A stretch of DNA of 63,761 nt, the filler included, from Elsinoe ampelina (Eukaryota): assembly GCA_010093995.1 (NCBI GenBank). It is 8 parts of 4 records of this genome, joined end to end, with 100 filler letters (N's around TTAATTAATTAA, not from the genome) between each part and the next. Parts side by side here need not be neighbours in the genome. Positions count along the whole stretch, not along the records: positions 36,295 to 50,888 come from ML992508.1; 7 more parts are not named here. One strand, written 5' to 3'. Shown here piece by piece: positions 3,966 to 59,027 of this stretch. The first letter of the stretch is position 1. Each line of letters starts with the position of its first letter. The notes under the pieces were generated by a model that ran no database searches, had not been told where the DNA came from, and saw only the letters and a program-made list of their open reading frames with translations. The position numbers and the translations under genes were made by a program.

Positions 3966-4107
3966 TGTTGTAACTAGCAAACCGGATCGAGAGACGTGTA
4001 TTTCATTTAGAGAGTTACAATAACCGATTTATCTACTATGCGTACGCTGACTTATTAGTGCTAGTTCTTTAGTACTAGAGAAGCTGTACTAGCCTTCTAT
4101 TATAACA
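3966..4107 (-). repeat. Copia family 1 LTR (3' LTR of copy B)
   Basis: TGTTGTAAC...TATAACA, adjacent to the PPT complement. Confidence 0.92.
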
Positions 4108-6451: not shown

Positions 6452-9400
6452 TGTTACGAACTGTCTAAACATAGCCTATACTAGTAGTCTAAGCTAAGCT
6501 AAGAACGAGGTAGTTCTACTTCTATAGTAGTATAGTACTAAGGTAAGAGTTAGAGAAGGTATATCTTATAGATAATAAAGTATAATTAGATAGTATTATA
6601 AAGGCTAGCCTTAGTAATACTAGTGTTTACTATCTAGACGAGGTTAACTATAGTACTTATATAAGGTAAGGACTACTCCTATATATATATATTCTTTACT
6701 ATGTACTTTATATACTCTATATACTCCGTAGCGAAAGTCGAGAGTAATATAGAGTATACGTCCGCTAGTAACCTATATACTCTATAGTCCCCGGGGTAGA
6801 GCTACTAGAGAAGATAGAGAACTAAGTAAATATTAAGCTAAGTTACGTAATAACCTTAGTAGTTTAATTAGTCCTAATATCTCTACGCTTTAGCTATTCT
6901 ACTAGTTTATAATATTACTCTCCTCTCTTAATCGAGTTATTCTAATAAGTAAGTATTCTTTCTTGTCCTTATACGCTATATACTAAATATGTCTTTTAGT
7001 TATTAAAGGTATAGTAAATCTAGTATATCTATATAAAAGAACCTCTCGAAGTTTATTAAATTATTTAGAACTAATATACTATAAGCTTACTCTTGTTATA
7101 AGTCAAAAGAGCTAGACTATAAAGTCTATATTCGGTCGGGTATTTATAGCTAGTATGTCGTAAGTAACTACTTAGGTTATAATATTTAAGTAACAAAATC
7201 GAAATAGTAGCGTCTCTAGTCTAAGTATATTTGTTTACGAAAGGAATTAGTTATAGCTAAGGCTACTAGAAAGAAAGCTAAAGAAGCTTATAAAAAGGTA
7301 AAAGAGGCTTATTAAAGAGCTATAGGTAATAAGCTTCGCCTACGCGAAGAGATATAAAAGTTAGAAAATAAGGTAGAGAAAGTAATCTCTCTAGAAGAGA
7401 CCTATATTTAAGTCTTAGAGTAGGAGGAAATACTATTGTTAGTGAATCCTATCCTACTATAGAACTAGTAATTATTTATGCCCGACTCTAATTAGAGTTC
7501 CTTACTTAGTAATAATTAAGGTACTTCTATTAGTTAAGTAATTTTCCTTAGGCATTCTCGTTTTAGTTTAGTGTTTAGAGTACTAGGTCTATCTAGTTAG
7601 TTTACTTAGGATAGGTTCTTAATCTAGTAATCTAGAATTGCTTATAAGGTAAAGTACTTCTCTAGTTTCTATATTACTTTACTATACTAATGTCCCTTCT
7701 AGTAAATAAGATAGTAGTATTTTCCTTTTATAAGTTTATAACGTAAAACCCTTTTAATCTTATACTATAGCTCCTATGTTTCTTTATCTAGTTTAATAGG
7801 TCTAGGTATAGTATTCTATAGTACTTTCTCTAGTAGTAATATATAAAAGACTAGATAGATCCTTATATATCTTAGTAGTTCTAGTTTATATATGTTTTTA
7901 TTTTTCTTTTCTAGGATCTTAAAGAGTCCTAGTTTAGTATAGTTAAGTTTCTTACTTAGTTATTTCGTTTTAATGTTTTTACTAAGGAGGTAAACTTTCT
8001 CTCTCTCCTATAGAATTAGTCCTATAATTCTCTTCTAGTTAGTAAACTCTACTATTCTTTGTAATATAAATACTATATCGTAGTATAGCTAGTTATATAG
8101 TTTCTTAATATTAGCTACTAGTATATTAGTATCCTTAGATATTAGCTTAATTCCGAGTATGTTATAGAATAGATCTAGGTATATTCTATAGTTTACGTAG
8201 AATAGTAAAATTCTATTTGCTAACTTTCTATTATTAATAGCAAGCTCTATAAGTAGTAATAGCGTTACCTATAAGTTTTACTTATAGTTTAGGTAGTATC
8301 GTAGATACTACTCTAGTACTTAATTTGCCCGTTTAGTTTATCTATCTATTTATAGATAAAAGAAGATTAATAGCTTATATTTAACCCCTAGTAGGTCTAT
8401 AAATAATTACTAGAATTGTGACGTAAATAGCTTATCTCTATTAGTTATTAAGTCTCGTAGTACTCTATATTATAAAATAATTATTCGAAAAAAGGTAAAG
8501 GCTATATCCTTAGTAGTTGCTATTATCTTATATAGTATAAAGTAGTAATACTTCGTAAATCTATCTACTAGGACTAGAATACTATTATACTTTATACCTA
8601 TAAGAGGTTCTTCTAATAGCAGTAAAGGTCCTATAAAGTCTATTATAACTAATTACTATAGTTTATCTAGTAGTAGTAAGAGTTATAATAGGCTATATAG
8701 CTTATGTCGTAAGTGCTTAGACTTATAGCATGTATTATATATAGTAATATACGTCTTAATATTGTTTTAGAGTTCTTTCTATAGGTAGTTTTATATAATA
8801 AGTTTAATAGTCTTATTAATCCTACTATGCCCTACTATTAGGTTATTATAGTATATTTAAATAACTTCTTTCTTCTATTCTTATATAAGCTTCTAGGTAA
8901 GGCTATATAACTACTCTACCTTCGGGTACTTATAGACTAGAGCGCTATCTTACTACTTTAGTATAGAGGCCTCTATTATTATTATATTCTTTAAGTAATT
9001 CGGTTATTAGCTAAGAGCGTCTACTCTACTATTCTCTAATCCCTTAATATAGTAGATCTAAAAGTTATAGCTTATAAGTGTTTCTAACTATTAAACCTAT
9101 TATCTATTAAGAACCTTAGTTATTATCTAATATAATAGGTTCTTATAGTCGGTGTAGACTTATATAGGTAAGGTTGTTTCTTCTAGATATACTTTCTATT
9201 CGCGGAATACCTCTATAATTATAAGTAACTCCTTATTATATATATTATAGTTAAGTTTAGGTCCGGTCATTTTTCGTAAGTAATATATAATTAGGTAGTG
9301 TTATTCTTCTACGTTCTTCTACACTAGACACGCTTCTATTATAAAGTCTAAGACATCTATTTCTAGTAGTGCTTATTAGTCTAGGTTAAAGAGTACTAGG

Positions 9401-12400
9401 ATAGGTACTATTATAAGTCTAAGCTTTAGCTCCTTAAAGGCCTACCTATATTTCTTATTAAAGACAAATCTAGTTTCTTTCTTTATAAGGTTAGATATTA
9501 GTATAGCTACCTTAGAGAATCCTTTAATAAACTTATAGTAGTAGTTAAAAAACTCTAGTAGCGCTTAAACCTCCTTAACTATAGTAGGTTCTAGCTAGTT
9601 ATTTACTAACTTAATCTTTTTTAAGTTAGGTCTAATACTATTAGTAGATATAACATAGCCTAGAAATTATATCTTATATTTATAAAACTTATACTTAGAG
9701 AGCTTTACTAGTAGGTCTTTTTCTTTTAGTTTCTATAGTACTTTATAAACATGTCTTATATATTTATTATACATCTTTAAGAAGATAATAATATTATCTA
9801 AATATACTAAGATAAAGTTATTAAGGTATTCTTATAGAGTATTATTAATTAACTCTTAGAAAGTTATAGGAGTATTAGTTAACTTAAAGAGCATAACGAG
9901 GTACTTATATAGACTCTATTACGTTCTAAAAGCTATCTTCTACTCCTTACTCTCCTTTATTTATACTTAATAATAGACATCTCTAATATTAATTACGGTA
10001 AACTATTTAGCTCTAAGTAGTTAGTCTTAAAGTTTATCGATCCTTAGTAGGGGATAGTAATTCTTCCTAGTAAGTGTATTAAGTTTCTAGTAATTAATAT
10101 ATATTTATAACGTTCTATCCTTTTTAGATATAAAAAGCACTCCGTGTATAATAGGTAATTTTAATAGTTATATAAATCCTTTAAGTAAGTACTTATCGAT
10201 ATAGTTCTTAAGGATGTTCTTCTCTTATTTCGATAGTAGTATAAGACCTTAATAATGTATTAGGGATTTACTCTCTTTAAAGAGTATTTTATAATTCTAT
10301 AGTTTATATTAGAGTAAGGCTATAATGCCTTCTCTTTCTTTAAATAAGTCCTTAAAGTCTTTATATTCTAGTAGAAGTACTTAATTACTTACGCTAGTAA
10401 TAGCTCTAACTATTAGTTATACCTATACTATTCTTATAGTTAGTATCCGTAGAGCTAATTATACTCTCTATATTCTATAATTACACTTAGGGAATTTAAG
10501 TATTTCTTTAATCTAGTCTATATCTAGATTGTGTTATTAAAGCTAGTCTATACTAAGTACTATATTGTACTATATGTCTACTATATCGATTAATCGTTTT
10601 TCTATATATGTTTTAATTTTAATTATAACGTTTTATAGTTCCTAAGTAACTTTTCTATTCTTCCCTATAGGAGTTCTATCTACTATAGTAAGTAAGTAAA
10701 GTAACTCCTTCTAGTGTTAATAAGGTTTAAGCTAATTAGTAACTATTATAGAGACGTAGCTATAGTTAGCTCCTAAATCTATTATTACTCTTACCTTACT
10801 CTTTTATATTTTAACTTCTAGTATAAAGTAGTTTAACGTATAGATCTTTATTATATTAAGGCTTTAGCTAGCGTTATTATCTTGCCTTATTAGGTAATAA
10901 CTAGCTAGTTTTTTGTTATTATAGCTCCTTAGATAAGTAGCTAATCCCTTCCTACATATATCTACTATTAGTACTATATCTATTAGGCAAGTTATATTTT
11001 GTTACTATTTAATATAGTAAGGTAAACTTCTAGCGCCTAAGTCCCTTAGTAACTATAAAGTCCAATAATTCCCTACTAGTTATACTAAGTAGTGTTATAC
11101 ACCTATATAAGTATAACTATTCCTTCTAAGTATAGCTAGGCGTTAGTATTAAAGACAAAAACAAGTTATGTAGATTTATCTTATTATGTTCTATTCTAGT
11201 AGTAGATATATATTATTATATAATTCCTCTATATCCCTATAAGGTATACTTTAAGTCGTCTACCTAGTAGTAGTATATTATCGTCGTTGTCGTTGTTATT
11301 AGATAAGTTCTTATCTATATTATTATATTATAGTTATTTAGTATATTCTTCGTTATATTCCTCTTCGTTGCTACTACCTCTAGTATAGTTATAGTTAGTA
11401 AGGCTATACTAAGTATATTCTCTTACTTAGCTATAGGGGATAGTACTATCTATTTCGATTACCGAGAAGTCTATAGTATATTTAAGACTAATAGCATCTT
11501 CTCTAAGTATATTATATAAGTAAATAGTATAGTACTATTTATAATCTAGATTTATGCATTTCTAGAGCGATATATAATATGCCTTTTCTTATAGTATGCT
11601 ATAAGAGCTAAAGGTAAGGCTACTATATTATTATATAGTACTTATATCTTAATACTTTATCTTAATAATTATATATTAGTAATTATTACTAACTACCTTC
11701 TAAGGTTAGTTACTATTACTACTAATTATAGAGAGCTCTTCTAGGTTAAGTTCCTAGTCTAGCTATTTTGTTAGTTACCTATACTTAGATAGCTTATATA
11801 GGAACTAACTAGATCTCTACTTATCTAATAAGTAAATATAACAAGAGTTATTATAATATACTATCTATAATAGCGTTACGTGTTAGCTTTGTTATTTACT
11901 ATTAGTTATAGAGATATTAAGTATAACATTTAGAGAGAATTCTATTACCTCTTAAGTTATTATAGACTTCTTCTATGTTTCCTTACCTACGCTAAAGGTT
12001 ATTAGGTCTTCTATAGTAGTGTTAGTCTTTTTCTCTACTAGCCTAGTAACTATTATATATAATCTATTAGCTAGTGCCCCTTATTAGTAGTCCCTAGCCT
12101 AATACTTAGGTCTTTTATACTTAAAATATAAGTTGTCTTATCTATACTTCTCTCTCTCTTTTCTACTAAGGAACTTTCCTCTATAGCTATAGCCTCGTAC
12201 CTATAAGGAGTAGCCTTTATATATAGTATTAAGTTCTATAGAGTCTCTATAGTTTCGAGAGGAACGTATATATCTAGTATTTATCTTATATCCTCTATAA
12301 CGTTCTATACGTTATTTGTAAAGTCTATTATTAATAGTAATTATAGTGTCTACTAGTTCCTAAAGGCTATTAGGCAGCTCGAGTATTATTTAGTCTTTAA

Positions 12401-13086
12401 CTAAGTCGCTTAGTCCTTAATAGAATACTAAGTGTTTAGTACTATTGTCCTAGTCTAGATATATTATAAGTTATTAGAACTAGGAATAGTACTAGGCTAT
12501 AGACCTATATTGTTATAGTTATTAGATCTTTGTTACGGCGATATATTTCTTATTAGATACATTAAAGACTTACTTAATCTTTGTCTAGAAGATACTAAAG
12601 CTCTTAAAGATAGCCTTTATATCTAGGCCTAGTTATCTATCTAGGTAGCTACTTATATAAGGCTTAAACTACCTAAAGGTAGCGCCTTTAAGGTGTATTC
12701 TAGTATAGAGGACCTTTACTATATCGTTAGCGTACTTGTCTCTCTCTAGAGTAAAGAAGGCTTTAAGTTAAACAAGGAAGCGCCTTAAGTAGGCGTAGTC
12801 TCTATAGAAGAGTTCTACCTCTAACTTAGGCCTACTCTATCCTTCTATACTAAAAGACCTTCTATACTTACTCGAGGTTAAACTAGTAGTAGATATATTG
12901 TTAATAGTAAGCTTTTCTAGCTTACTAGTAATTAAAGATACTAATAGTAACTTAGAGCAAGAGTTACTTATTAACCTCGTAGCGTGCTATACTATAGTAA
13001 GGGTAGTTAAAATGTTACGAACTATCTAAATATAGCCTACGCTAGTAGTCTAAGCTAAGTTAAGAACAAGGTAGTTCTACTTCTAT
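6452..13086 (-). mobile_element. Ty3/Gypsy chromovirus copy 1 nested in Copia B; RIP-degenerate
   Basis: LTR 6452-6914 (TGTTACG...); second LTR starts at 13013 and is cut by a gap. On the minus strand, RT YLDD (LVYLDDII, de-RIPed) near 9790-9810 and a chromodomain (Y.IER.L.H......YLVHWKG.....TWEPE, de-RIPed) near 7650-7765. Colinear with 27592-34523. Confidence 0.9.
6989..7537 (+). pseudogene. RIP-inactivated antisense accessory ORF of Gypsy: Zn(II)2Cys6-like cluster plus coiled coil (~182 aa)
   Basis: ATG at 6989, no frameshift, all internal stops TAA/TAG (RIP products). Six TAY codons spaced x2-x6-x8-x2-x7, followed by a K/E/A-rich helical tract. Second copy at 28037-28585. Confidence 0.65.
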
Positions 13087-14440: not shown

Positions 14441-14582
14441 TATTATAACTAGTAAATCGGACTGAGAGATATATATTTTATTCAGAGAGTTACAATAACC
14501 AATTTATCTACTGTGCATGCGCTGACTCATTAGTACCAGTTCTTCAGTACCAGAGAAGCTGTACCAGCCTTCCATTACAACA
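14441..14582 (-). repeat. Copia family 1 LTR (5' LTR of copy B)
   Basis: TATTATAAC...TTACAACA, adjacent to the PBS complement. Confidence 0.92.
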
Positions 14583-25259: not shown

Positions 25260-25987
25260 ATAGGGGTCGGAGTATACCTGGAGGATATCATGAGCTACGA
25301 CATTATGCAGACACGATTGTATGTATATCAATTGTCTTTCACAACAATCACTATGAATATTAATAATCGAGCAATCGTTCATGACCATGAAATCCAGGAT
25401 GGGGGTCACCCTGTTCCATTTCAGCCAATCACAGTCCACCCCTCTATTTACCCCCACCCTCGATTGCCTCGCGCAGCAGCAAGCGCCTGTTGTAACTAGC
25501 AAATCGGATCGAGAGATGTGTATTTCATTCAGAGAGTTACAATAACCGATTTATCTACTGTGCGTGCGCTGACTTATTAGTGCTAGTTCTTTAGTACTAG
25601 AGAAGCTATACTAGCCTTCTATTATAACACTCCCTCTCTAGTATAGATTATTAAAGCTAGAGAACTGTCCTATTATATATAAGTAAAGTAATTAGCTTAT
25701 TACTTTATCTCTTTATAATTGTTAGTACTAGCTAATCACTAGTAAGAATTTACTATTAGATTAGCTTATCACAGCTAGCAACAATAGTAACTATTAATAA
25801 TAACTAGGCAGCTATTGTCTCTATTGTTCTATATAAATAGATTAGCTTATAAATCTTAACAAGGGAGATATAAGTATCTAGCTAACTTCTTTATAGTTTC
25901 TCTTTCCTTTATTACACTTATAATAATAGCCTACTATTTTATATTCTACTTTTATACCTTCTATAGCATAAACTAACTCCTTATAGT

Positions 25988-27181
25988 ATAAGTGCTACTA
26001 CTTAGCTAGGCATTAGTAGCATTGCTACTAGTGCTAGAGTACTAGGTAGTTCGCTAGGTAGTAGAGGTAGAGGATATAATCTTCCTTAGTCTAGAGATTT
26101 AACTAGTTCTAAGATAAGAGAGTANNNNNNNNNNNNNNNNNNNNNNNNNNNNNNNNNNNNNNNNNNNNNNNNNNNNNNNNNNNNNNNNNNNNNNNNNNNN
26201 NNNNNNNNNNNNNNNNNNNNNNNNNNNNNNNNNNNNNNNNNNNNNNNNNNNNNNNNNNNNNNNNNNNNNNNNNNNNNNNNNNNNNNNNNNNNNNNNNNNN
26301 NNNNNNNNNNNNNNNNNNNNNNNNNNNNNNNNNNNNNNNNNNNNNNNNNNNNNNNNNNNNNNNNNNNNNNNNNNNNNNNNNNNNNNNNNNNNNNNNNNNN
26401 NNNNNNNNNAATTAACTTAACTAGTTCTCTAACTTATATAGCTACCTTAATAGGAACTAGTACTACTAGAAGAGTTATTTACTATAGTACTAACTACTAT
26501 ACTAAGTGTTAGAGCTCTACTCTAGGTAATAATAGTAGCCTTAGTAGGGCTAGCAAGTTTAAGTAGTGTATTATAGTCTCTAGCTAGTTCTATAGTGCCT
26601 ACACTAACTATATCTATAGTCTATAGTATAAGACTTACTCTCTTATCTAGTATACTCTAACTCTAAGACCTCTAAAAGAAACTTTAAGTAGTTTAAGGCC
26701 TATTACCTAACCTGTTCTATATAGCCTAATATACCTACTAACTAAGCTTCTAAGGTCTTTCTCTTTTAGTAGTGCTTTACCTTAAAGGTTCTTACTAAAG
26801 CCTACTTCTTCTTATAGTAGGCCTACTAACGTTATTAATAAGTCCTTAGTGTATCCTAACTTACGCTACTTTATTATAGTCCCTATAGACTTTGCTAATC
26901 TAGTAAATCCTATATAGGCTAAGCTCTAGGCTCTATAGATTATTATAGCTAGGTTTACTATAAGTATAGCTAAGAGTATATCTAGTAAGAGAAGTAGTCT
27001 TCTAACTATTTATACCTTTACTATACAAGGTTTAGCTAGTAGTATAGGTTATATAAGGAATGTATCTAGATCTTCCCTAAGAAACGAAAGGTTAAGGGCT
27101 AACTCTAATATATTAATAGGTAGTAGATCTTATACTAGCTCTAAGAGCTTTAAGAGAATAAGAACTCCTCTAAGAAAGTAA
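25988..27181 (+). pseudogene. RIP-inactivated antisense accessory ORF of Copia (DUF3716-like), allele 2
   Basis: De-RIPed CTKC-x19-C-x10-CTNC-x8-C (GKFKQCVVVSGQF.GACTNCVYG.QYKTCSL) at 26498-26644; in-frame stop AAG TAA at 27179-27181; interrupted by gap 26125-26409. Confidence 0.65.
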
Positions 27182-27591: not shown

Positions 27592-30500
27592 TAAGAGTTA
27601 GAGAAGGTATATCTTATAGATAATAAAGTACAATTAGATAGTATTATAAAGGCTAGCCTTAGTAATACTAGTGTTCGCTATCTAGACAAGGTTAACTATA
27701 GTACTTATATAAGGTAAGAACTATTCCTATATATATATGTTCTATATTATATACTCTATATACTTTATATACTTCGTAGCGAGAGTTAGAGGCAATATAG
27801 AGTACATGTCCGCTAGTAACCTACGTACTCTATAGTCTCTAGGGTAGAGCTACTAGAGAAGATAGAGAACTAAGTAAATGTTAGGCTAGGTTATATAATA
27901 ACCTTAGTAGTTTAATTAGTTCTAACGTCTCTACGCTCTAGCTATTCTACTAGTTCGTAACATTACTCTTCTCCTTTAATCGAGTTATCTTAACGAGTAA
28001 GTATTCTTTCTTATCCTTATACGCTATGTACTAAATATGCCTCCTAGTTGTTAAAGACATAGTAAATCTAGTATATCTATACGAAAGAACCTCTTAGAGT
28101 TTATTAAATTGTTTAGAACTAATATACTATAAGCTTACTCTTATTATAAGTCGAAAGAGCTAGACTATAAAGTCTATATTCGGTCGGGTATTTATAGCTA
28201 GTATGTTATAAGTAACTATCTAGGTTATAATATTTAAGTAATAAAATTAAAATAGTAGCGTCTCTAGTCTAAGTATATTTGTTTACGAAAGGAATTAGTT
28301 ATAGCTAAGGCTACTAGAAAGGAAGCTAAAGAAGCTTATAAAAAGGTAAAAGAGGCTTATTAAAGAGCTATAGGCAATAAGCCTTACCTATATAAAGAGA
28401 TATAGAAATTAAAGAATAAGGTAGAGAAAGTAATCTCTCTAGAGAAAATCTATATTTAAGTTCTAGAGTAAGAAGAAATACTATTATTAGTAGATTCTAT
28501 TCTACTATAAGATTAGTAATTATTTATACCTAACTCCGATTAGAGTTTCTTATTTAGTAACGATTAAGGTGCTTCTATTAGCTAAGTAGTTTTCCTTAGG
28601 CATTCTCGTTTTTGTTTAGTATTAGTAGTGTTAGGCCTACCTAGTTAGTTTACTTAGGATAGGTTTTTAGTCTAGTAATCTAGAATTGCTTATAAGGTAA
28701 AGTATTTCTCTAGTTCCTATATTACTTTACTATACTAATGTCCTTTCTAGTAGATAAGATAGTAACGCTTTCCCCTTATAGATTTATAACGTAAAACTCT
28801 TTTAATCTTATACTATAGCTTCTATATCTCTTTATCTAGTTTAATAGGTCTAGGTACTCCGTCTTATAGTGCTTTTTCTAATAGTAATATATAAAAGACT
28901 AAGTGGATTCTTATATGTCTAGGTAGTTCTAGTTTATATATGTTTTTGTTTTTCTTTTCTAGGATCTTAAAGGGTTTTAGTTTAGTATAGTTAAGCTTCT
29001 TACTTAGTTGTTTCGTTTTAATATTTTTACTAAGGAGGTAAACTTTCTCTCTCTCCTATAGAATTAGTCCTATAATTCTCTTCTAGTTAGTAAACTCTAC
29101 TATTCTTTATAATATAAATACTATATCTTAGTATAGCTAGTTATATAACTTCTTAATATTAGCTACTAGTATATTTATATCCTTAGATATTAGCTTAATT
29201 CTAAGTGTGTTATAGTATAGATCTAGGTATATTCTATAGTTTACATAGAATAGTAAAACTCTATTTGCTAACTTTCTATTATTAATAGCAAGCTCTACGA
29301 GTAGTAATAGAGTTACCTATAAGTCTTACTTATAGTTTAGATAGTAGCGTAGGTACTACTCTAGTACTTAATTTACCTATTTAGTTTATCTATCCGTTTA
29401 TAGGTAAAAGAAGGTTAATAGCTTATATTTAACTCCTAGTAGATCTATAAATAATTACTAGAATTGTAATATAAAGAGCTTATCTCTATCGGTTATTAGG
29501 TCTTATAGTACTCTATACTATAAAACAATTATTTAGAGAAAGATAAAGGCTATATTCTTAGTAGTTGCTATTATCTTATATAGTATAAAGTAGTAGTACT
29601 TCGTAAACTTATCTACTAGGACTAGAATACTATTATACTTCGCACCTATAAGAGGCTCTTCTAATAGCGGTAGAGGTCCTATAAAGTCTATCGTAACTAA
29701 TTACTATAGTTTATCTAGTAGTAGTAAGGGTTATAGTAAGCTATATAGCTTATATTATAAGTACTTAGACTTATAGCATATATTGTATATAGTAATATAT
29801 ATCTTAACATCGTTTTAGAGTTCTTTCTATAGGTAGTTCTATATAATAAGTTTAATAGTCTTATTAATCCTACTATGTCCTACTATTAGATTATTATAGT
29901 ATATTTAAATAACTTTCTATTTTTGTTCTCTCGTAAGCTCCTAGGTAAGGCTATATAACTACTCTACCTTTAGGTGCTTATAGACTAGAGCGCTATCTTA
30001 CTACTTTAGTATAGAGGCCTCTATTATTATTATATTTTTTAAGTAATTCGGCCGGTAGCTAAGAGTATCTACTCTATCGTTTTCTAATCCCTTAACGTAA
30101 TAGATCTAGAAGTTATAGCTTATAAGTGTCTCTAACTATCGTACTTGTCGTCTATTAAGAACCTTAGTAGTTGTCTAATATAGAAAGTTCTTATAGTCGG
30201 TATAGACTTATATAGGTAAGGTTATTCTTTCTAGGTATACTCTCTACTTACGGAATGCCTTTATAATTATAAGTAGTTCCTTATTATATATATTATAGTT
30301 AAGTTTAGGTCTAGTTATTTTCTGTAAATAATATATAATTAGGTAGCATTATTCTTCCGCGTCTTTCTATACTAGATACACTTCTATTATAAAGTCTAAT
30401 ATATCTATCTCTAGTAGTGCTTATTAGTCTAGGTCGAAGAGTACTAAGATAGGTACTATTATAAGTCTAAGCTTTAGCTCCTTAAAGGCTTACCTATATC

Positions 30501-33500
30501 TTTTGTTAAAGATAAAGCTAGTTTTCTTTTTCGTAAGGTTAAATATTAGTATAGCTACCTTAGAGAATCCTTTAATAAACTTATAGTAGTAGTTAAAGAA
30601 TCCTAGTAGCGCTTAAACCTCCTTAACTATTATAGGTTCCGGCTAGTTATTTACTAACTTAATCTTCTTCGGATTAGGTCTAATACTATTAGTAGATATA
30701 ACATAGTCTAGAAATTGTATCTTATATTTATAAAACTTATACTTAGAGAGCTTTACTAGTAAGTCTTTTTCTTTTAGTTTCTATAGCACCTTACGAATAT
30801 GTCCTATATATTTATTATACATCTTTAAGAAGATAACAATATTATCTAAATATACTAAGATAAAGTTATTAAGGTATTCTTATAGAGTGTTATTAATTAA
30901 CTCTTAGAAGGTTATAGAAGCGTTAGTTAACCTAAAGAGTATAATAAGGTACTTATATAGACTCTATTACGTCCTAAAAGCCGTTTTCTACTCCTTGCCT
31001 TTCTTTATTTATACTTAATAATAAGCATCTCTAATGTTAATTACGGTAAACTATTTAGCTCTAAGTAGTCGGTCTTAAAGTTTGTTAATCCTTAGTAGGG
31101 GATAGTAATTCTTCCTAGTAAGTGTATTAAGTTTCTAGTAATTAATGCATATTTATAATATTCTATCCTTTTTAGGTGTAAAAAGTACTCCGTGTATAAT
31201 AGGTAATTTTAATAGTTATATAAATCCTTTAAGTAGGTACTTATCGATATAGTTCTTAAGAATATTCTTCTCTTATCTCGATAGTAGTATAAGACCTTAA
31301 TAGTATATCGGGGATTTACTCTCTTTAAAGAGTATTTTATAATTCTATAGTTTATATTAGAGTAAGGCTATAATACTTTCTCTTTCTTTAAATAAGTTCT
31401 TAAAGTCTTTATATTCTAGTAGAAGTACTTAATCGCTTACGCTAGCGATAGCTCTAACTATTAGTCGTACCTATACTATCCTTATAGTTAGTATCTATAG
31501 AGCTAATTATGCTCTCTATATTCTATAATTACACTTAGGAAATTTAAGTGTTTCTTTAATCTAGTCTATATCTAGATTATATTATTAAAGCTAGTCTATG
31601 CTAAGTACTATATTATACTATATATCTACTATATCGATTAATTGTTTTTCTATATATATTTTAATTTTAATTATAACGTTTTATAGTTCCTAAGTAACTT
31701 TCCTATTCTTCCCTATAGGAGTTCTATCTACTATAGTAAGTAGGTAAAGTAACTTCTTCTAATATTAATAAGGTTTAAGCTAGTTAGTAACTGTTATAGA
31801 AATATAGCTATAGTTAGCTCCTAAATCTATTATTACTCTTACCTTATTCCTTTATATTTTAACTTCTAGTATAAAGTAGTTTAACGTGTAGATTTTTATT
31901 ATATTAAGGCTTTAGCTAGTGTTATTATCTTACCTTATTAGGTAATAACTAGCTAGTTTTTTGTTATTATAGCTCCTTAGATAAGTAGCTAATCCCTTCC
32001 TATATATATCTACTATTAGTACTATACCTATTAGGCTAGTTATGTCTTATTACTATTTAATATAGTAAGGTAGACTTCTAGCACTTAAGTTCCTTAATAA
32101 CTATAAAGTCTAATAATCCTCTACTAATTACACTAAGTAGTATTATACACCTATATCGATATAACTATTCCCTCTAGATAGAGCTATATATTAGCGTTAA
32201 AGACGAACGTAGGTTAAGTAGGTTTATCTTATTATATCCTACTCTAGTAGTAGGTGTATATTATTATATAATTTCTCTATATTTCTATAAGGTATACCTT
32301 AAGTTGTCTACCTAGTAGTAGTATATCGTTGTTGTTATTATTATTAGGTAAATCCTTATCTATATTATTATATCGTAGTTATTTAGTATATTCTTCGTTA
32401 TATTTCTCTTTATTGCTATTACCCCTAGTATAGTTATAATTAGTAAGGCTATACTAAGTATATTCTTATACTTAGCTATAGGGAATAGCACTATCTATTT
32501 TAATTACCGAGAAGTCCGTAGTATACTTAAGACTAATAGTATCTTCTCTAAGTACATTATATAAGTAGATAGTATAGTACTATTTATAATTTAGATTTGT
32601 ATATTTCTAGAGCGATATATAATATACCTTTCCTTATAGTTCGCTATAAAAGCTAAAGGTAAGGTTACTATATTATTATATAGCACTTACGTTCTAATAC
32701 TTCGTTTTAATAATTATATATTAGTAATTGTCGCTAACTACCTCCTAAGGTTAGTTAATATTACTACTAATTATAGAGAGCTCTTCTAGGTTAGGTTCCT
32801 AGTCTAGCTATTTTATTAGTTACCTATACTTAGATAGCTTATATAGAAACTAAGTAGATCCTTACTTATCTAATAAGTAAATATAACAAGAGTTATTATA
32901 ATATACTATTTATAATAGTGTTACGTATTAGCTTTATTATTTACTATTAGTTATAGAGATATTAAGTGTAATATCTAGAGAGAATTCTATTACCTCTCGA
33001 GTTGTTATAGACTTCTTCTATATTTCCTTACCTACGCTAAGAGTCGTTAGGTCTTCTATAGTAGTATTAGCCTTTTTTTTTACTAGCCTAGTAACTATTA
33101 TATATAATCTATTAGCTAGCGCCCCTTATTAGTAGTCTCTAGCCTAATATCTAGGTCTTTTATTTTTAAAATATAAATTGTCTTATCTATACTTCTCTCT
33201 CTCTTTTCCGCTAAGGAACTTTTCTCTATAGCTATAGCCTTATACTTATAAGAGGCAACCTTCGCGTATAGCGTTAAGTTCTATAGAGTCTCTATAACTC
33301 TAAGAGAAACGCGTATATCTAGTGTTTACCTTATATTCTCTACGACGTTCTATGTGTCGTTTATAGAGTTAGTTATTAATAGCAATTATAGTATCTACTA
33401 GTTCCTAAAGGCTATCCGGTAGCTTAAGTATTATTTAATCTTTAACCGAGTTACTTAGCCCTTAATAGAATATAGAGTGTTTAGTACTATCGTCCTAGTC

Positions 33501-34523
33501 TAGGTGTATTACGAGTTACTAGAACTAGGAATAGTACTAGGCTATAGACCTATATTATTATAGTTATTAGATCTTCGTTATAGTAATACGTTTCTTATTA
33601 GATACGTTAAAGACTTACTTAATCTTTACCTAGAAGATACTAAAGCTCTTAAAGATAGCCTTTATATCTAGGCTTAGTTATCTATCTAGGTAGCTACTTA
33701 TATAAGGCTTAAACTACTTAAAGGCGGCGCCTTTAAAGTATATCCCGGTATAGAGGACCTTTACTACGTCGTTAGCGTACTTATCTCTCTCTAAGGCGAA
33801 GAAGGCTTTAAGCTAGATAAGGAAGCGCCTTAAGTAGGCGCGGTCCCTATAGAAGAGTTCTACCTCTAGCTTAGGCCTACTCTGTCCTTTCTCTATACTA
33901 AGAGACTTTCTATATTTACCCGAGGTTAAACTAGTAGTAGATATATCGTTAATAGTAAGCTTTCTTAGCTTACTAGTGATTAAAGATACTAATAGTAACT
34001 TAGAGCAAGAGTTACTTATTAACCTTATAGCGTGCTATACTATAGTAAGGGTAGTTAAAATGTTATAAACCGTCTAAATATAGCCTATACTAGTAGTCTA
34101 AGCTAAGCTAAGAACGAGGTAGTTCTACTTCTATAGTAGAATAGTACTAAGGTAAGAGTTAGAGAAGGTATATCTTATAGATAATAAAGTATAATTAGAT
34201 AGTATTATAAAGGCTAGCCTTAGTAATACTAGTATTCGCTATCTAGACAAGGTTAACTATAGTACTTATATAAGGTAAGAACTATTCCTATATATATATA
34301 TTCTATGTTATATACTCTATATACTCTATATACTCTATAGTAAGAGTCGGGGGCAACGTAGAGTATATATCCGCTAGTAACCTATATACTCTATAGTCTC
34401 TAGAGTAGAGCTACTAGAGAAGATAGAGAACTAAGTAAATGTCGAGCTAGGTCACGTAATAACCTTAGTAGTTTAATTAGTCCTAACGTCTCTACGCTCT
34501 AGCTATCCTACTAGTTCGTAACA
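27592..34523 (-). mobile_element. Ty3/Gypsy chromovirus copy 2 nested in Copia C; RIP-degenerate
   Basis: Left LTR partial (27592-27962), right LTR complete at 34061-34523 (463 bp, TGTTA...GTAACA). Colinear with copy 1, including RT and chromodomain remnants. Confidence 0.9.
28037..28585 (+). pseudogene. RIP-inactivated antisense Zn(II)2Cys6-like/coiled-coil ORF of Gypsy, copy 2
   Basis: ATG CCT CCT start. De-RIPed MP..ACSRCKSKELDCKVHVRSGICGQCVASNYPGCD, then a coiled-coil-like tract and an acidic tail. Confidence 0.65.
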
Positions 34524-36809
34524 ATTAGCTATTATAATAACTTAGTTATAATAAAGAGTATATACAAGAATTACTCTTCTAGTTTTAGCTCTTAGTATTA
34601 GTATAAAGGTTCTAATAAAGTTAATATCTACTCTTTAAGTAAAGCCCCTTATAGTCTAANNNNNNNNNNNNNNNNNNNNNNNNNNNNNNNNNNNNNNNNN
34701 NNNNNNNNNNNNNNNNNNNNNNNNNNNNNNNNNNNNNNNNNNNNNNNNNNNNNNNNNNNNNNNNNNNNNNNNNNNNNNNNNNNNNNNNNNNNNNNNNNNN
34801 NNNNNNNNNNNNNNNNNNNNNNNNNNNNNNNNNNNNNNNNNNNNNNNNNNNNNNNNNNNNNNNNNNNNNNNNNNNNNNNNNNNNNNNNNNNNNNNNNNNN
34901 NNNNNNNNNNNNNNNNNNNNNNNNNNNNNNNNNNNNNNNNNNNNNNNNNNNNNNNNNNNNNNNTATATATATTAGTAGTTAATTAACATTAACTATAGGA
35001 TTAAAGGTTAAATATAGTTTACTAATAACTTTAGGTAGTAGTATTATAAGGTCTTTACCTTTATAATTAGTAATAGTAAGTTACTTCTCCTATTTATTAA
35101 TAGGTTAAGGATCTAGTTTAGGATGTTAGTATTACTCTCTCTATTCTTTAATAGGGGTAGATAATTATTATTTATATCTAAGGATTAAAGAGTAGTTAGA
35201 TATTAGTTATTTAGCTTAAGGTTATTTAGCCTAAGTAGTTTATAGATTCTTATAACTAAAGGGTAGTTAATTATAGCTATAGCCTTAATAATTATAGCTA
35301 TAGTCTTAATTATAATTACTACTAAATATCTACTTCCCCTAAAGCTATAAAGCCTTAGGTTATTATACCTATAGGATATATAGCTATTTAATAACTTATA
35401 TTACCTAGTCTTTATAGACTATATTCTTATTAAATATTACATAGAGTAATATAATAATCTTTTCCTTCTAGGCTTACTAAGTATAATACTAATAAGATAT
35501 TTAGATAAGGTAATTAGTTATTAAGTTATTCTATATGCTAATATACTAACTAAGTAGTGCTCTAGCTTAGAATTTGTATAATTTAGAAATATATTAGTTA
35601 TAGATATAGGCTCTATAGCTAAAGCGTCTAATATAAGTTAATAAGACTAGCCTATTATTATTAAGAAGATTCTTTCTTAGCTCTTATATAGGGATCTTCT
35701 TAGTTTTAGTATAGGCAATTCTATTACTAATATAGATTATAAACTTTATAACTATATACTAGAGTTTAAGGGGTGCTCTATAATTAATAAAGATATACCT
35801 TGCTCTAAGAATAACTACTTTATTAGTAGCCTTAGATTTACTATTTTAGTATTAAGTATTAGGTATAGAGATATTCTATCTCTACTCTTTAAGATAAATA
35901 GCTATTACTAGTTTATAGTTCTTAAATTTACTCTCTCTATTAGAGATAAAGATAAATAAAAGCTTATTATAAGCTATTTTATTCCTTATATAGATAAGTT
36001 TAATTACTACTAGTATATTACTCTTAAGAAAGAGAATAGTAATAAACTTATACTTACTCTTACTATATATTATAAAGAGAAGATATTTATAGCCCTTACT
36101 TAACTATAGTTTAATAGGACTAATAAGGTCTAGATAGAGCTTATCTAATAAGTACTTTAGTATATCCCTTAGTTCTCTTAATACTACTCTCTATNNNNNN
36201 NNNNNNNNNNNNNNNNNNNNNNNNNNNNNNNNNNNNNNTTAATTAATTAANNNNNNNNNNNNNNNNNNNNNNNNNNNNNNNNNNNNNNNNNNNNTCTCTC
36301 TTAAGAATCTAAGTCTTAAGCATTTTTACTAATCTAGATATAATAATAGTAATTAGCTAAAGGCTTATTAATTTAATTAATGTAATTAGCTTATTTAAGC
36401 CGTTTAAGCTATTTAATTAAAGAGTTAATACGGGCTACTATAAGTGTTTATCTTAATATAGCTAGTCTAGAATTTAGTATAGGCGGCTTAGTAATCCTTT
36501 TAATAATAACATACTTAATTTGCTATAGCTTTAAGTGCTTTTATAGAAGCGCCGGGCTTATAACCTGTTATAACTGGCAAATTAGATCGAGAGATGTGTA
36601 TTTTATTCAGAGAGTTACAATAACCGATTTATCTACTATGCGTGCGCTGACTTATCAGTGCCAGTTCTTCAGTACCAGAGAAGCTGTACTACAACAGCGC
36701 CGACATCACCACTTTCCACTCGTTCATCCTCACATACACTCATTCTCCTGCGCATACTGTCCCAAGTCCTACCAGACCGCCTGACTAACATCGCACATCG
36801 TGACCCAGC

Positions 36810-49179: not shown

Positions 49180-50888
49180 TGTTGTAACTAGCAAATCGGA
49201 TCGAGAGACGTGTGTTTCATTCAGAGAGTTACAATAACCGATTTATCTACTGTGCGTGCGCTGACTTATTAGTACCAGTTCTTTAGTACTAGAGAAGCTG
49301 TACTAGCCTTCTATTATAACACTCCCCCTCTAGTATAGATTGCTAAAGCTAGAGAACTGTCTTGTCACATGTAAGTAAAGTAATTAGCTTATTACTTTAT
49401 CTCTTTATAATTGCTTATAATTGTTAGTGTTAGCTAATCATTAGTAAGAATTCACTATTAGTTTAGCTTATAATTACTAGCAATAATAGTAACTATTAAC
49501 AATAGCTAGGTAGCTATTGTTTATATAAATAGACTAGCTTATAAGTCTTAATTAAAGAGATATAAGTATCTAACTAGCCTCTTTATGATTTCTCTTTCCT
49601 TTATTATACTTATAGTAGTAGCCTTTTCTTTTACATAATACTTTTACCTTCTTACTATACTATATTAATAACACTTATAATATAAGCGCTATAGTATAGT
49701 AATAGCTAGGCATTAGTAGCATTACTACTAGTACTAGTGCTCTAAGTAGTCTACTAGGTAGCGGAGGTAGTAGTAAGAAGAGAAATTCTCTATTAAGGTT
49801 GCCTAGTACTTCTAATGTTAATTATAATACTACTATAAGACTAATTACTTGTCTTAATACTCTTAGTAAGTAGCTATAAAGCATTAATAGCATAAGCTAA
49901 TATTAATAGCCTAATTAACTTAGACTTTAACTTAATAGTTAGCCGATATAATCTAGAATACTCTTCTTAGGCTTAGGATAATTAGTTATTATAACTATAC
50001 TAACTTATATTCTGTCTAGAGGTCTATAGTAGTTTAGGCCTTTAGTACCTGTAGTACACACCTAGTAGTTACTAATCCTATTCTAGTTAAGGATCTAACT
50101 AAGTAAGTTAACCTTACTAGATCTACTAACTACTTTACTACTTTAATAGCTTCTAGTGCTACTAGTAGAGTAGTCTACTATAGCACTAATTGCTACACTA
50201 AGTGTTAGGGATCTAACCCTAGTAATAATTAGAGTAAGGGTAAGAGTAGCAAGTTTAGTAAGTGTATTACTTTGCCTAGTTAGCTTAATAAGGCCTATAC
50301 TTGCTATGCTTATAGCAACTAATATACTAGATGTTCCTTAGCTAACTATACTTTAACTCTAAGGCCTATTAGCTCTCCTAAACCTATAAGGACCCTAAGT
50401 AGCTTAAGGGTTATTACCTAGCCTATTCTATATAGCCTAACACACCTACTAATAGAGCTCCTAAGGTCTATCTCTTTTAGTAGTACTTTACCTTAGAGGT
50501 TCTTACTAAGGGCCTATATACTAGAGGCATTATTAGGTATAGTTAACACCTTAATAACTTATACTAACTCTTACTACTTTATAGTAGTCCCTATAAACTT
50601 TGTAGATCCTACTAACCTAACTACTACTAAGGTTTATAACTTAGCTACTATAGTAATAAACTATATAGTAGAGCTTATAAGAATTATAGCTACTAGCTAC
50701 TCTAGTTAGCTTTCTCCTATTTATACCTTTACACTAGGCCTAGTACTAATAAGGCATAGTAGGTCTAGATCTAATACTTCTATAAGGTCTACTAGTAGTA
50801 ATAAGGGAAGGAGTTCTCCTTCTATAAAGAAGTAATTAGAGGTAGGGGATAGATAGGAGTTATTAAAGGTAATAATAGTACTAAGTAG
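49180..50888 (-). mobile_element. Copia family 1, copy D (3' end only)
   Basis: LTR at 49180-49321, then PPT complement CTCCCCCTCT, then the accessory ORF; ends at a gap. Confidence 0.88.
49682..50835 (+). pseudogene. Best-preserved copy of the antisense, intron-containing DUF3716-like six-Cys gene of Copia (~369 aa)
   Basis: ATA (=ATG) AGC GCT at 49682. Intron 49866-49909 reads GTAAGT..GCTAA(C)..TAG, and the spliced frame runs without frameshift to TAA at 50833-50835. Cys codons at 50194, 50203, 50263, 50296, 50305, 50332 (three still TGT). Confidence 0.72.
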
Positions 50889-50988
50889 NNNNNNNNNNNN
50901 NNNNNNNNNNNNNNNNNNNNNNNNNNNNNNNNTTAATTAATTAANNNNNNNNNNNNNNNNNNNNNNNNNNNNNNNNNNNNNNNNNNNN

Positions 50989-53900
50989 AACAATTATCTA
51001 CCCCTATTAAAGAATAGAAGGAGTAACACTAATATCCTAAACTAGATCCTTAACCTATTAATAAATAGGGGAAGTAACTTAATGTTACTAATTATAAAGG
51101 TAAAGACCTTATAATACTACTACTTAAAGTTATTAGTAAACCACATTTAACCTTTAATCCTATAGTTAATATTAATTAATTACTAATGTATATATAGAAT
51201 AAGGATGTTAACTTCCTTATTACACTATTTAATATACAACCTCTAACTAGTAAAAGGAAGAGATCTCTCTTACTATAAGAAACTATTAGGAGGTCCCTTA
51301 GAATACATCGCTAGATTAATTATAAGAAACTTAATAATAGCAAGATTATTAGATCTATAGCTATTAATTTTAAGCTAGACCTACAAATAGTAAGAGATAT
51401 ACTATTCTCTTCTAAAGGTTATTACTAGTAAGCTATAATAGAGGCAGAGTAGAAGGCTCTAACTAACTCTAAAACCTTTTTAATTATTAAGAAATCTTAG
51501 GCACTAAGAGGTGTTAGGCTAATAATAGGCAAATAGGTCTTTAAGACTAAGAGGCTTACTAATAGTAAAGTTAAAAGATATAAGGCTTGTTAGACTATAA
51601 GGGGCTTTACTTAAAGAGTAGGTATTAACTTTGTTAGAACCTTTGTACTAACACTAAGAGCTAAAACTAAGAGAGTAATCCTTATATATACTCTTTATTA
51701 TAACTAGGTTATTATAACAGTAGATGTAGTTACTACATTTCTTAAACTAGACATTGATATTAAGAACTATATCTCCTGCCTAGAAGGCGTACTAATTCCT
51801 AGTAAACAGGACAAGCTTATTATTCTTATAAAGGGCTTATATAGGCTTAAGTAAGCTACTACCCTCTAGTATAACGCTATAGTTAAGGCACTTCTATTAC
51901 TTAGTTTTATTAGATCCTATAGTAATACCTATCTCTTTATTAACAAGTATTATATAGTTCTTATATATATTAATAACTTTAGGATTATTACTACTAGGTA
52001 GAAGTATATAGATAAGCTAGTTAAAGATCTTTATCTTAAGTTTCTAATAAAGATTATAAACTTAAACCTCTTCCTTAGTGTTTAACTTTATAGAACTAAG
52101 GACTTAATTAAGATTAAGCAATTACACTACTTAAAGGAGAAGCTTAAAGGTTATAATCTTCACTAAGTAAGAACTATAAAGCATCCTATTAATTAACTCT
52201 ATAAACTAACTAATAGCTAAGTTAATGCTTAGTACTATAAGACATTTAATAGGATCATTAGTAAATTATAATATCTAGCTAATAACATAAGGCCTAATAT
52301 TAGCTATGCCACTAATTACCTAGCTAGGTTCCTTTAGAATCTAACTATAGCTTATATAGTTATAGCTAAGCAGATCTAGAGGTATATTAATAGGACTATT
52401 ATAAAGGGCCTTACCTTTAAGAAGACTAATAGACTATTAGTTAACACAATTAAGGCCTACTCTAACTTAGACTTTGCTAGAGATAGATTAACTACAAGAT
52501 CTATATCTAGTACTATTATTTACATACTTAGTACACTAGTTATTTAGAAGTTAAAGCTATAGAAGATTATTATATTATTAAGCACTAAGGCTAAATACCT
52601 TACCCTTACTAAGACCTATAGAGAGATTAATTAGTTAAGAAATCTTATTATTAAACTTAGGCTACTTACTAATATTTACCTTAGCCTAACTATAGTCTTT
52701 ATTAATAACAAGTTAGCTATTAAACTTATAAGAGATTATACTAATTTAAGGAGATCTAAGTATATTAATTTAAGGAATTATTACTATAGAGAGTAGTATA
52801 AACTTAGAGCAATTAAGCTTAAGTATATTAATATAACTTAGTAATTAGCTAATACACTTATAAAGCCTAAGTCTCCTAACAAGATCCTTAATTAATTAGC
52901 AAAGGCTAATTACTTAGTACATATCTACACTATATACTTATTTAAATTTTATATATATTATTATTTTAAGCATATTATTTATACTACTACTACTTATTAA
53001 GCTATCTTATTTGTCTAAAGCTTAAAGCAAATTATTTTATTATTAAGAAGAGAGAAAGGAAAAGCTATTATAACTCTATTACTAGCTACTTATACCTAAG
53101 CTATATCTACTACTTAGTACTATTATTACCTTTAATAACCCCTATCTATCCTCTACCTCAAATTACTTCTTTATAGAAGAAGAACCCCTTCCCTTATTAC
53201 TACTAGTAGACCTTATAGAAGTATTAGATCTAGACCTACTATGCCTTATTAGTACTAGGCCTAGTATAAAGGCATAAATAGGAGAAAGCTAACTAGAGTA
53301 GCTAGTAGCTATAATCCTTATAAGCTCTACTATATAGTTTATTACTATAGTAGCTAAGTTACAAACCTTAGTAGCAGTTAGGTTAGTAGAATCTATAAAG
53401 TTTATAGGGACTACTATAAAGTAGCAAGAGTTAGCATAAGTTATTAAGGTGTTAACTACACCTAATAATGCCTCTAGTATATAGGCCCTTAGTAAGAACC
53501 TCTAAGGCAAAGCACTACTAAAAGAGACAGACCTTAGAAGCTCTATTAGTAGGTNNNNNNNNNNNNNNNNNNNNNNNNNNNNNNNNNNNNNNNNNNNNNN
53601 NNNNNNNNNNNNNNNNNNNNNNNNNNNNNNNNNNNNNNNNNNNNNNNNNNNNNNNNNNNNNNNNNNNNNNNNNNNNNNNNNNNNNNNNNNNNNNNNNNNN
53701 NNNNNNNNNNNNNNNNNNNNNNNNNNNNNNNNAATTAGTGCTATAGTAGACTACTCTACTAGTAGTACTAGAAGCTATTAAAGTAGTAGAGTAGTTAGCA
53801 GATCTAGTAAGGTTAACTTACTTAGTTAGATCCTTAACTAGAATAGAATTAGTAACTACTAGGTATACACTACAGGTACTAAAGGCCTAGACTACTATAG

Positions 53901-54744
53901 ACCTCTAGACAGGATATAAGTTAGCATAGTTATAATAACTAATTATCCTAAGCCTAAGGAGAGCATTCTAGATTATATCGGCTAACTATTAAGTTAAAGT
54001 CTAAGTTAATTAGGCTATTAATGTTAGCTTGTGCTATTAATGCTTTATAGCTACTTACTAAGAGTATTAAGACGAGTAATTAGTCTTATAGTAGTATTAT
54101 AATCAACATTAGAAGTACTAGGCAACCTTAATAGAGGATTTCTCTTCTTGCTACTACCTCCGCTACCTAGTAGACTACTTAGAGCACTAGCACTAGTAGT
54201 AATGCTACTAATGCCTAGCTGTTACTATACTATAGCGCTTATGTTATAAGTGTTATTAATATAGCATAGTAAGAAGGTGAAAGTGTTATATAAAAGAAAA
54301 GGCTACTACTATAAGTGTAATAAAGGAAAGAGAAATTATAAAGAGGCTAGTTAGATACTTATATCTCTTTGATTAAGACTTATAAGCTAGTCTATTTACA
54401 TAAACAATAGCTGCCTAGCTATTGTTAATAGTTACTATTATTGCTAGCAATTATAAGCTAAACTAATAGTAAATTCTCACTAATAATTAGCTAACACTAA
54501 CAATTATAAGCAATTACAAAGAGATAAAGTAATAAGCTAATTACTTCACTTATATGTGACAGGACAGTTCTCTAGCTTTAGTAATCTATACCAGAGGGGG
54601 AGTGTTGTAATAGAAGGCTAGTACAGCTTCTCTAGTACTAAAGAACTGGTACTAATAAGTCAGCGCACGCACAGTAGATAAATCGGTTATTGTAACTCTC
54701 TGAATGAAACACACGTCTCTCGATCCGATTTGCTAGTTACAACA
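50989..54744 (+). mobile_element. Copia family 1, copy E (3' half: RT, RNase H, accessory ORF, 3' LTR), inverted relative to D
   Basis: De-RIPed GKWVFKTK, RYKAR..RGFTQ, VDVVTAFL, KGLYGLKQA, LVYVDDF, AYSDSDFAGD, STEAEY, RSKHID, ADALTKP. PPT GAGGGGGAG, then LTR 54603-54744. Confidence 0.9.
53163..54242 (-). pseudogene. Antisense DUF3716-like gene of Copia, allele 1 (copy E; Cys cluster mostly in gap)
   Basis: Reverse complement of 49682-50835; retains the GCTAAC branch site in the intron. Confidence 0.65.
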
Positions 54745-58758: not shown

Positions 58759-59027
58759 TGTAATTACCACACAGGTGCTTGTGGATGTAGCTTACGAAGT
58801 AAATGAAATGCACGAAAAACCAATGAGAAGTAATTGCTTGTCTTACGGTCTGCAATCAATTGCAGCATGTTAGTCTTCCAATGATACCAACTTTGGTGTC
58901 AACCGAGGTATAAGCTGGAGCGCCAAGAAGGACCCTGATTCAGTTCATCCCCTGGTGGAACTGAACACTTATCTACTACTCCACTAATTTATGATCAAAT
59001 TAGATAGTTATTGTCTTAATCTGTTAC

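Follow-up and report, generated by a model that had tools for sequence, protein, structure and literature searches.

Extra genes carried by long terminal repeat (LTR) retrotransposons are seldom annotated and their roles are unknown, and the only fungal example named in the literature found is brtn of the element Boty. Additional open-reading frames (ORFs) lying antisense between pol and the 3′ LTR have been described in the plant elements Grande, RIRE2, Retand and PvRetro13 as well as in the fungal Boty (PMC7264820). Here we describe such a frame in a 63,761-nucleotide stretch of DNA from Elsinoe ampelina (assembly GCA_010093995.1), which was analyzed as a whole and is called the window below. 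The frame lies within a Ty1/Copia LTR retrotransposon and is another antisense additional ORF (aORF-3R) of this established, little-studied class. No paper describing an antisense ORF in a fungal Copia element was found in the literature searched, in which subscription journals were mostly uncovered. The architecture itself is known; here it occurs in a fungal Copia element, together with a probable intron and a cysteine cluster.

In layout the frame is like brtn, the extra gene of the Ty3/Gypsy element Boty in Botrytis cinerea and Sclerotinia (cited as Zhao et al. 2011, Virology 417:248, in PMC7264820 and PMC8365987), in that both are extra genes of a fungal LTR element, antisense to gag-pol and placed between pol and the 3′ LTR. 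The host of brtn is a Gypsy and not a Copia element, and the available text of those two papers mentions neither an intron nor a cysteine cluster for it. The frames of Grande (gene23), RIRE2, Retand and PvRetro13 share the position, the orientation and the occurrence in most copies of a family, and differ in their plant hosts and in having, for any of them, no clear database similarity; in Grande an upstream promoter of its own drives the frame, and the encoded protein is nuclear (PMC7264820). The word intron does not occur in the available text of that review, whereas the Elsinoe ORF has a probable one. Accessory genes carried by a transposon are also known from another Dothideomycete, Zymoseptoria tritici, where the DUF3716-annotated genes REP9-1 and REP9-2, without signal peptide and of unknown function, ride in the class II transposon REP9 and have been killed by repeat-induced point mutation (RIP) in sister species; one of the two affects pycnidium formation (PMC8232023). 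REP9 differs from the present host in being an IS3EU-like DNA transposon with 43-bp inverted repeats and not an LTR element (PMC8232023). A Fusarium DUF3716 protein has been termed the orthologue of a Neurospora protein that binds telomeric sequence (PMC10776026). No description of a DUF3716 gene borne by a retrotransposon was found in the same, mostly non-subscription literature. If a link between the Elsinoe frame and DUF3716 is true, an uncharacterized fungal domain would be tied to transposons of both classes, with zinc-dependent DNA binding at element ends or telomere-like repeats as a testable function.

Two further systems help to place the orientation of the gene and its candidate intron. 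HBZ of human T-cell leukemia virus type 1 (HTLV-1) is an antisense gene near the 3′ LTR with a spliced transcript, and its product is a nuclear regulator of the basic leucine zipper (bZIP) type; it is like the Elsinoe frame in being an antisense gene by a 3′ LTR and differs in its vertebrate retroviral host and bZIP product, no sequence relation being claimed. An intron that lies antisense survives retrotransposition, which is the principle of the his3-AI indicator. Ty1his3-AI thus resembles the present case in carrying through reverse transcription an intron antisense to the element RNA and differs in being an engineered marker, whereas the Elsinoe gene would illustrate in nature that introns come through retrotransposition only when they are antisense. 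The antisense promoter of the HTLV 3′ LTR is mentioned in PMC7264820, and the his3-AI cassette is named in the title of PMC8074290.

The outer repeat that hosts the antisense ORF is a Ty1/Copia LTR retrotransposon, as the original prediction had proposed. Pfam recognizes the Copia-type reverse transcriptase family RVT_2 in copy D/F (E 7.5e-20; 72 bits, the cut-off being 31.6) and in copy E (E 8.5e-13). The LTRs are 142-bp direct repeats found at seven places, with ends TG...CA (TGTTGTAA...TTACAACA in a seven-way alignment), a polypurine tract that reads AGAGGGGGAG on the strand of pol lies immediately beside the 3′ LTR, and copy B is flanked on both sides by a perfect 5-bp target duplication, GCGCC. 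The family is at least 6.2 kb long. Copy D is the cleanest copy, with pol, ORF, polypurine tract and LTR all within a single contig; its pol, on the plus strand, runs from 50991 through a C-terminal pol motif at 52830-52920 to a first in-frame stop at 52998. The spacer between pol and LTR, which had been put at about 1.7 kb, is about 1.6 kb in this copy (52998 to 54603).

All copies have been heavily mutated. The window consists of GC-rich islands (~50% GC) interleaved with AT-rich blocks (21-33% GC), and the AT-rich blocks bear the RIP signature, with a TpA/ApT ratio of 1.9-2.4 compared to 0.55-0.59 in the islands and a (CpA+TpG)/(ApC+GpT) ratio of 0.15-0.30 compared to 1.2-1.3. When close repeat copies are compared, 141 transitions are found against 3 transversions, and 88 of the 141 transitions fall at CpA/TpG. 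RIP makes no transversions, and these were used as a test independent of it.

Four copies in the window, A to D, include the region between pol and the 3′ LTR, and the antisense ORF is present there in all of them. The ORF and pol are convergent, with about 165 bp separating their ends. Its parts are as follows, with coordinates along the window, strand and the evidence used where noted.

49332..49681, plus strand: putative promoter and 5′ untranslated region of the antisense gene in copy C, with TATA-like strings near 49524 and 49560 (sequence)
49682..49865, plus strand: copy C exon 1, 61 codons and 1 nt, start ATA (open frame)
49866..49909, plus strand: candidate 44-nt spliceosomal intron, GTAAGT, branch GCTAAT, TAG (frame change)
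49910..50835, plus strand: copy C exon 2, 308 codons and a TAA stop at 50833-50835 (stop density, transversions)
50191..50334, plus strand: cysteine-rich core, exon 2 codons 94-141, copy C (sister-copy comparison)
50341..50600, plus strand: best-conserved segment between the alleles, 8.7% transversions (allele alignment)
53163..54242, minus strand: copy D ORF, with exon 1 at 54242-54059, intron at 54058-54015 and exon 2 at 54014-53163, and an N gap at 53555-53732
4738..5661, plus strand: copy A exon 2, with exon 1 and the intron hidden by an N gap at 4193-4737
25988..27181, plus strand: copy B, the diverged allele, with part of exon 1 at 25988-26124, an N gap at 26125-26409 and part of exon 2 at 26411-27181

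In copy C the frame comprises 61 and 308 codons with 18 internal stops, and the available sequence of each copy holds 10 to 18 in-frame stops. The claim that these are exclusively TAA or TAG holds (18 of 18 in copy C), but it is not diagnostic, because RIP removes TGA too and every frame here lacks TGA; reading through those two codons leaves several frames, on one strand as on the other, open for 1,100-3,600 codons. In copy A the ORF frame has 2-5 stops per 100 codons compared to 9-27 in the other plus-strand frames, and copies B, C and D are alike in this. Across the AT-rich DNA, the median of 1,056 window-by-frame counts is 11 stops per 100 codons, and of the 24 counts at or below 3, seven are the ORF frame in copies A-D while the remainder are gag/pol frames or their partners. 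On the opposite strand, the in-register antisense frame of copy C exon 2 carries 30 stops against 15 in 307 codons, and over the last 164 codons the figures are 21 against 3.

The transversions give the same answer. Between the two alleles (B versus C) they number 33, 30 and 61 at codon positions 1, 2 and 3 (p = 0.001), or 36, 35 and 72 when exon 1 is included (p = 9e-5), and the best-aligned part shows the classic 2<1<3 order (18/11/29, p = 0.014); an earlier alignment of the same pair gave 36/32/60, with 3/5/11 in exon 1 alone. The excess of position 3 over position 1 (61 versus 33, p = 0.005) favors the plus strand over its mirror. The three-base composition rhythm is identical in both alleles, the position of the stop is common to both, and the start reads ATA in copies B, C and D, where ATA is the RIP product of ATG, as predicted. 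A frame of ~369 codons with protein-coding signatures stands, and its reading as an accessory gene is well supported.

A RIP origin of the in-frame stops, also part of the original prediction, is seen directly at two of them: exon 2 codon 65 is TAA in copies C and D and CAA in copy A, and exon 1 codon 8 is TAG in copy C and CAG in copy D. It had further been set out beforehand that TAY codons should read TGY in less mutated copies, and at five codons (47, 94, 141, 221 and 242) a Tyr codon in one copy is a Cys codon in another. Parsimony over the three close copies removes only 1 of the 16 exon 2 stops. The antisense gene in this genome is a fossil, all copies being RIP-dead, and no product is made from it now.

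Upstream of the frame, a TATA-like box and a pyrimidine-rich leader had been pointed out; both are present but are indistinguishable from chance in such DNA, and the strongest C-rich tract upstream of the ORF (49322-49331) is the complement of the polypurine tract.

The 44-nt element between the exons is probably a spliceosomal intron, judging from its signals and from the reading frame. The open stretch of exon 1 spans 49704 to 49870, its end lying 5 nt into the GTAAGT at 49866; 44 nt later the exon 2 frame resumes in the correct phase (frame +2 joined to +1). The predicted intron signal was thus found to be canonical and correct in place and phase, with a branch site that reads GCTAAC in copy D and GCTAAT in copy C. 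The AT-rich DNA, 60,638 nt when both strands are counted, contains 14 full intron-like motifs (0.23 per kb), and GTAAGT alone occurs at 0.54 per kb. By our own estimate, the chance of such a motif at this place is ~1% (0.23 per kb × a span of 0.13-0.19 kb × 1/3 for phase). TAGs further downstream would preserve the same phase as the TAG of the 44-nt intron.

The antisense gene exists as two deeply diverged alleles, B on one side and A, C and D on the other, within near-identical Copia backbones. The transversions that separate copy B from copies A, C and D are distributed along the element as follows.

LTR: 0/141
170 nt next to the LTR: 1.8%
Last 180 nt before the start codon: 8.4%
Exon 1: 21.9%
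Cysteine core: 15.7%
Middle segment: 8.7%
C-terminal third: 28.8%
Between the two stops: 6.6%
End of pol: 2.2%

The divergence extends to third codon positions, so faster protein evolution alone is insufficient to account for this pattern, and the gene block looks as if it had been exchanged by recombination between Copia lineages. A search for repeats, inverted or direct, of the kind expected if the block were itself a nested transposon returned only low-complexity chance matches. An intron-bearing antisense gene kept in two old alleles would show that the Copia family maintained the gene under selection.

Exon 2 codons 85 to ~200 are the best-conserved stretch between the alleles, and the ends of the predicted protein are basic and rich in Ser and Arg. 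Cys codons are verified in at least one copy at exon 2 codons 94, 98, 118, 131 and 141, with codon 131 being Asn in allele B. The proposal of a six-cysteine cluster holds in part: codons 98, 118 and 141 read TGY in at least one copy, but codons 95, 129 and 132 read TAY throughout, a conservation that is consistent with lost Cys. The resemblance to DUF3716 (PF12511), including the cysteine spacing, is putative, and Pfam searches with the RIP-damaged translations did not confirm it. With X placed at the stops, these translations matched no Pfam family in any of five queries at E up to 10, two of the queries being in the wrong frame. This miss is expected, because RIP turned Cys into Tyr and Gly into Ser or Asn. 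A profile of five copy pieces found no match among 1.84 billion representative proteins at E up to 0.001, word-seeded protein searches at E up to 10 produced 75 and 8,000 candidates of which none scored, and PDB sequences gave no match at E up to 10. Among metagenome contigs, 597 pattern matches were obtained and none was confirmed by tblastn. An AlphaFold2 model from a five-row alignment was uninformative (mean predicted local distance difference test 31, predicted template-modeling score 0.24). Equal damage leaves the Copia reverse transcriptase detectable, which indicates that the ORF protein is either poor in conserved sequence or fast-evolving.

Taken together, these results point to a Copia family that carries, antisense to gag-pol, one further gene (two exons with a 44-nt intron, ~369 codons) between pol and the polypurine tract and 3′ LTR, which would act as an accessory to the element; we put the probability of this explanation at roughly 60%. 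The gene would be transcribed from integrated copies by its own promoter in the ~360 bp adjoining the 3′ LTR, and only this antisense transcript would be spliced. In the genomic RNA the intron is reverse-complemented, so that it would not be removed and would be copied at each retrotransposition. The Cys cluster would bind zinc and the protein would act in the nucleus on DNA or chromatin for the benefit of the element, possibly by regulating the LTR, by targeting or by countering silencing. Over its last 1.5 kb the genomic RNA would also be fully complementary to this antisense RNA.

Several observations weigh against this explanation. The gene is known here from its sequence alone. Of the four copies only C and D, which are closely related, show the intron region, N gaps hiding it in A and B, and a shared ancestral frameshift could conceivably explain the frame change instead. 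The first 47 codons of exon 2 carry 7 stops, which is the background level and makes the exact 3′ splice site, or the reality of this segment, uncertain. Stop-poor frames also occur antisense to Gypsy pol, so that stop density alone cannot fix the strand, and for this reason the strand of the ORF was checked separately, as given above. At three of the six proposed zinc ligands (codons 95, 129 and 132), all copies of either allele read TAY. Finally, no homologue of the RIP-damaged translations turned up in Pfam, among representative proteins, in PDB or in metagenomes, which leaves both domain assignment and function as inferences.

The block could alternatively be a passenger, that is, a cellular gene or a piece of a transposon that was inserted with its intron at the DNA level into an ancestral Copia and has rendered the element no service. 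The intron does favor an origin at the DNA level over capture of an mRNA in sense orientation, the block behaves as a separable cassette (9-29% transversions inside compared to 0-2% in the flanking LTR and pol end), and REP9-1 and REP9-2 are DUF3716 genes within a transposon (PMC8232023). Its presence in four of four copies and in two old alleles speaks against a passenger, as does the lack of terminal inverted repeats or duplications bounding the block, and the fact that both alleles keep the frame, the start, the stop position and the 2<1<3 pattern points to long retention under selection; we therefore regard a passenger as unlikely, if still worth holding in mind. A bolder proposal, which we also think has only a small chance of being right, is that the protein is a true DUF3716 and that DUF3716 is a transposon-borne DNA-binding module of class I (this Copia) and class II (REP9) elements that is swapped as a cassette, in which case the cellular NCU05718 (the Neurospora telomere-repeat binder) and Fusarium PSC58 would be domesticated copies. 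Such swapping between element lineages is suggested by the two deeply diverged alleles in near-identical Copia backbones.

It is less probable still that the working product is the antisense RNA, which would form double-stranded RNA with the 3′ 1.5 kb of the genomic RNA and so tune or silence the element, the frame being secondary. The ORF does lie wholly within the region of the genomic RNA and converges with pol, and the possibility has been raised in a review of such ORFs (PMC7264820), but the codon-position bias of the transversions and the depletion of stops indicate selection on the protein reading, and roles for RNA and protein are mutually compatible. That there is no gene at all, the stop-poor frame being an artefact of RIP composition or a shadow of the sense strand and the intron signal a matter of chance, is very hard to credit. 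In its favor, several frames of either strand open up once TAA and TAG are disregarded, the antisense frames of Gypsy pol are stop-poor too, and GTAAGT is found 0.54 times per kb. Against it, all four copies contribute counts of the ORF frame to the 24 lowest of the 1,056, the last 164 codons hold 3 stops in the ORF frame and 21 in the in-register antisense frame, transversions, a kind of change that RIP does not cause, are most numerous at position 3 (p = 0.001), and start and stop are kept across alleles that differ by 9-29% in transversions.

The remaining features of the host element, including the LTRs from which the copies were delimited, are listed below.

49180..49321, minus strand (the element sense strand): copy C 3′ LTR, 142 bp, TGTTGTAA...TTATAACA (LTR alignment)
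49322..49331, minus strand: copy C polypurine tract AGAGGGGGAG, adjoining the 3′ LTR on its upstream side (sequence)
50991..52997, plus strand: copy D/F Copia pol, reverse transcriptase and RNase H part, with RVT_2 at ~51510-52190 (Pfam)
54595-54602, plus strand: copy D polypurine tract AGGGGGAG (sequence)
54603..54744, plus strand: copy D 3′ LTR (LTR alignment)
3966..4107, minus strand: copy A 3′ LTR (LTR alignment)
14300-13188, minus strand: copy A stop-poor frame, probably gag (stop density)
14441..14582, minus strand: copy A 5′ LTR (LTR alignment)
25483..25629, minus strand: copy B GCGCC (25483-25487) and 3′ LTR (25488-25629) (LTR alignment)
36566..36701, minus strand: copy B 5′ LTR (36566-36696) and matching GCGCC (36697-36701) (LTR alignment)

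Near its outer end the 5′ LTR of copy B is missing 11 bp that the remaining six LTR copies have. The sequences flanking copy A (GAAAA at 3961-3965, ATGAC at 14583-14587) do not form a target duplication, and this copy may be a recombinant of two insertions, or its ends may have been misjoined by scaffolding. No integrase was matched by Pfam upstream of the reverse transcriptase in three RIP-damaged pieces (B 34966-35700, B 35549-36193 and E 61751-62347); apparent remnants of an integrase core are seen in the minus-strand translation of 35549-36193, as judged by eye only. The conserved sequence adjoining the 5′ LTR does not start with TGG, and no tRNA is assignable as primer. The Leptosphaeria maculans elements Pholy (LTR 281 bp) and Zolly (177 bp) listed in Table 4 of PMC3105345 are unlike the 142-bp Copia LTR in size.

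While the Copia host held up, the long pol by copies A and B, which the original prediction had overlooked as a separate element, belongs to a nested Ty3/Gypsy. By copy A this pol (minus strand, ~7450-12900) is matched by Pfam RVT_1 (5.8e-11), RT_RNaseH_2 (2.1e-13) and RT_RNaseH (1.1e-11), with Integrase_H2C2 and SH3_Tf2-1 matches below their own cut-offs. The Gypsy has its own LTRs of ~455 bp (TGTTACGAAC...GTTCGTAACA), and the antisense ORF lies outside them. A Ty3/Gypsy host for the ORF, with the 142-bp repeats as its LTRs, was considered and rejected, as the Gypsy has ~455-bp LTRs and is nested in Copia. The Copia reverse transcriptase region occurs without the Gypsy at loci E (61035-61260) and F (51809-51587, reverse), which makes the Gypsy a secondary, nested insertion in that region.

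6453..13086, minus strand: Ty3/Gypsy nested in the Copia reverse transcriptase, not the host of the ORF (Pfam, junction)
27592..34516, minus strand: second nested Ty3/Gypsy copy, right junction with Copia pol at 34516/34517 (junction)

The Gypsy-in-Copia junctions, 6342-6452/6453-13086 and 27592-34516/34517-34659, lie in two contigs and were compared with the empty sites at 61095-61200 and 51750-51645, the partner junctions being lost at contig ends. The Copia flank to the left of one junction overlaps the flank to the right of the other by 23 nt, and the Gypsy represents either two independent insertions in the same orientation 18 bp apart (a hot spot) or an unusually long duplication. An apparent 15-20% divergence between A 13187-14135 and B 34135-36143 was discarded as an artefact, in which non-homologous parts had been aligned across contig linkers. 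Frames antisense to Gypsy and Copia pol are as poor in stops as the pol frames (3 per 100 codons), at 8401-8850 on the plus strand and also at 11401, 32401 and 35701, reflecting either a mirror effect of RIP codon usage or further antisense frames.

An identical block, N44-TTAATTAATTAA-N44, occurs seven times (6242-6341, 13087-13186, 27492-27591, 36195-36294, 50889-50988, 60843-60942 and 62349-62448). These blocks look like artificial all-frame-stop linkers joining contigs and were taken as such, so that the sequence does not prove contiguity across them; other N runs were treated as sized gaps. The contigs 6342-13086, 27592-36194 and 60943-62348 between linkers consist of repeats only, and their order across the linkers is a claim of scaffolding, which for copy B is supported by the paired GCGCC duplication. 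Positions 60800-60842, at the end of a contig, agree at 41 of 43 bases with 62449-62491, at the start of the next but one, with the contig 60943-62348 between them.

In the GC-rich islands, Pfam searches of 125 ORFs did not find DUF3716 and identified a kinase, an amino-acid transporter, dehydrogenases, an amidase, a fungal transcription factor, a radical-SAM wyosine enzyme, GH64, GH16 and Pmp3, all of them ordinary fungal genes. The two contigs that agree at 60800-60842 and 62449-62491, taken together, look like a second, different Copia-like element on the plus strand within 59000-63761 (SH3_retrovirus, 4.4e-10), and its frame is the least stop-ridden in the window, with 1-3 stops per 100 codons at 62500-63250.

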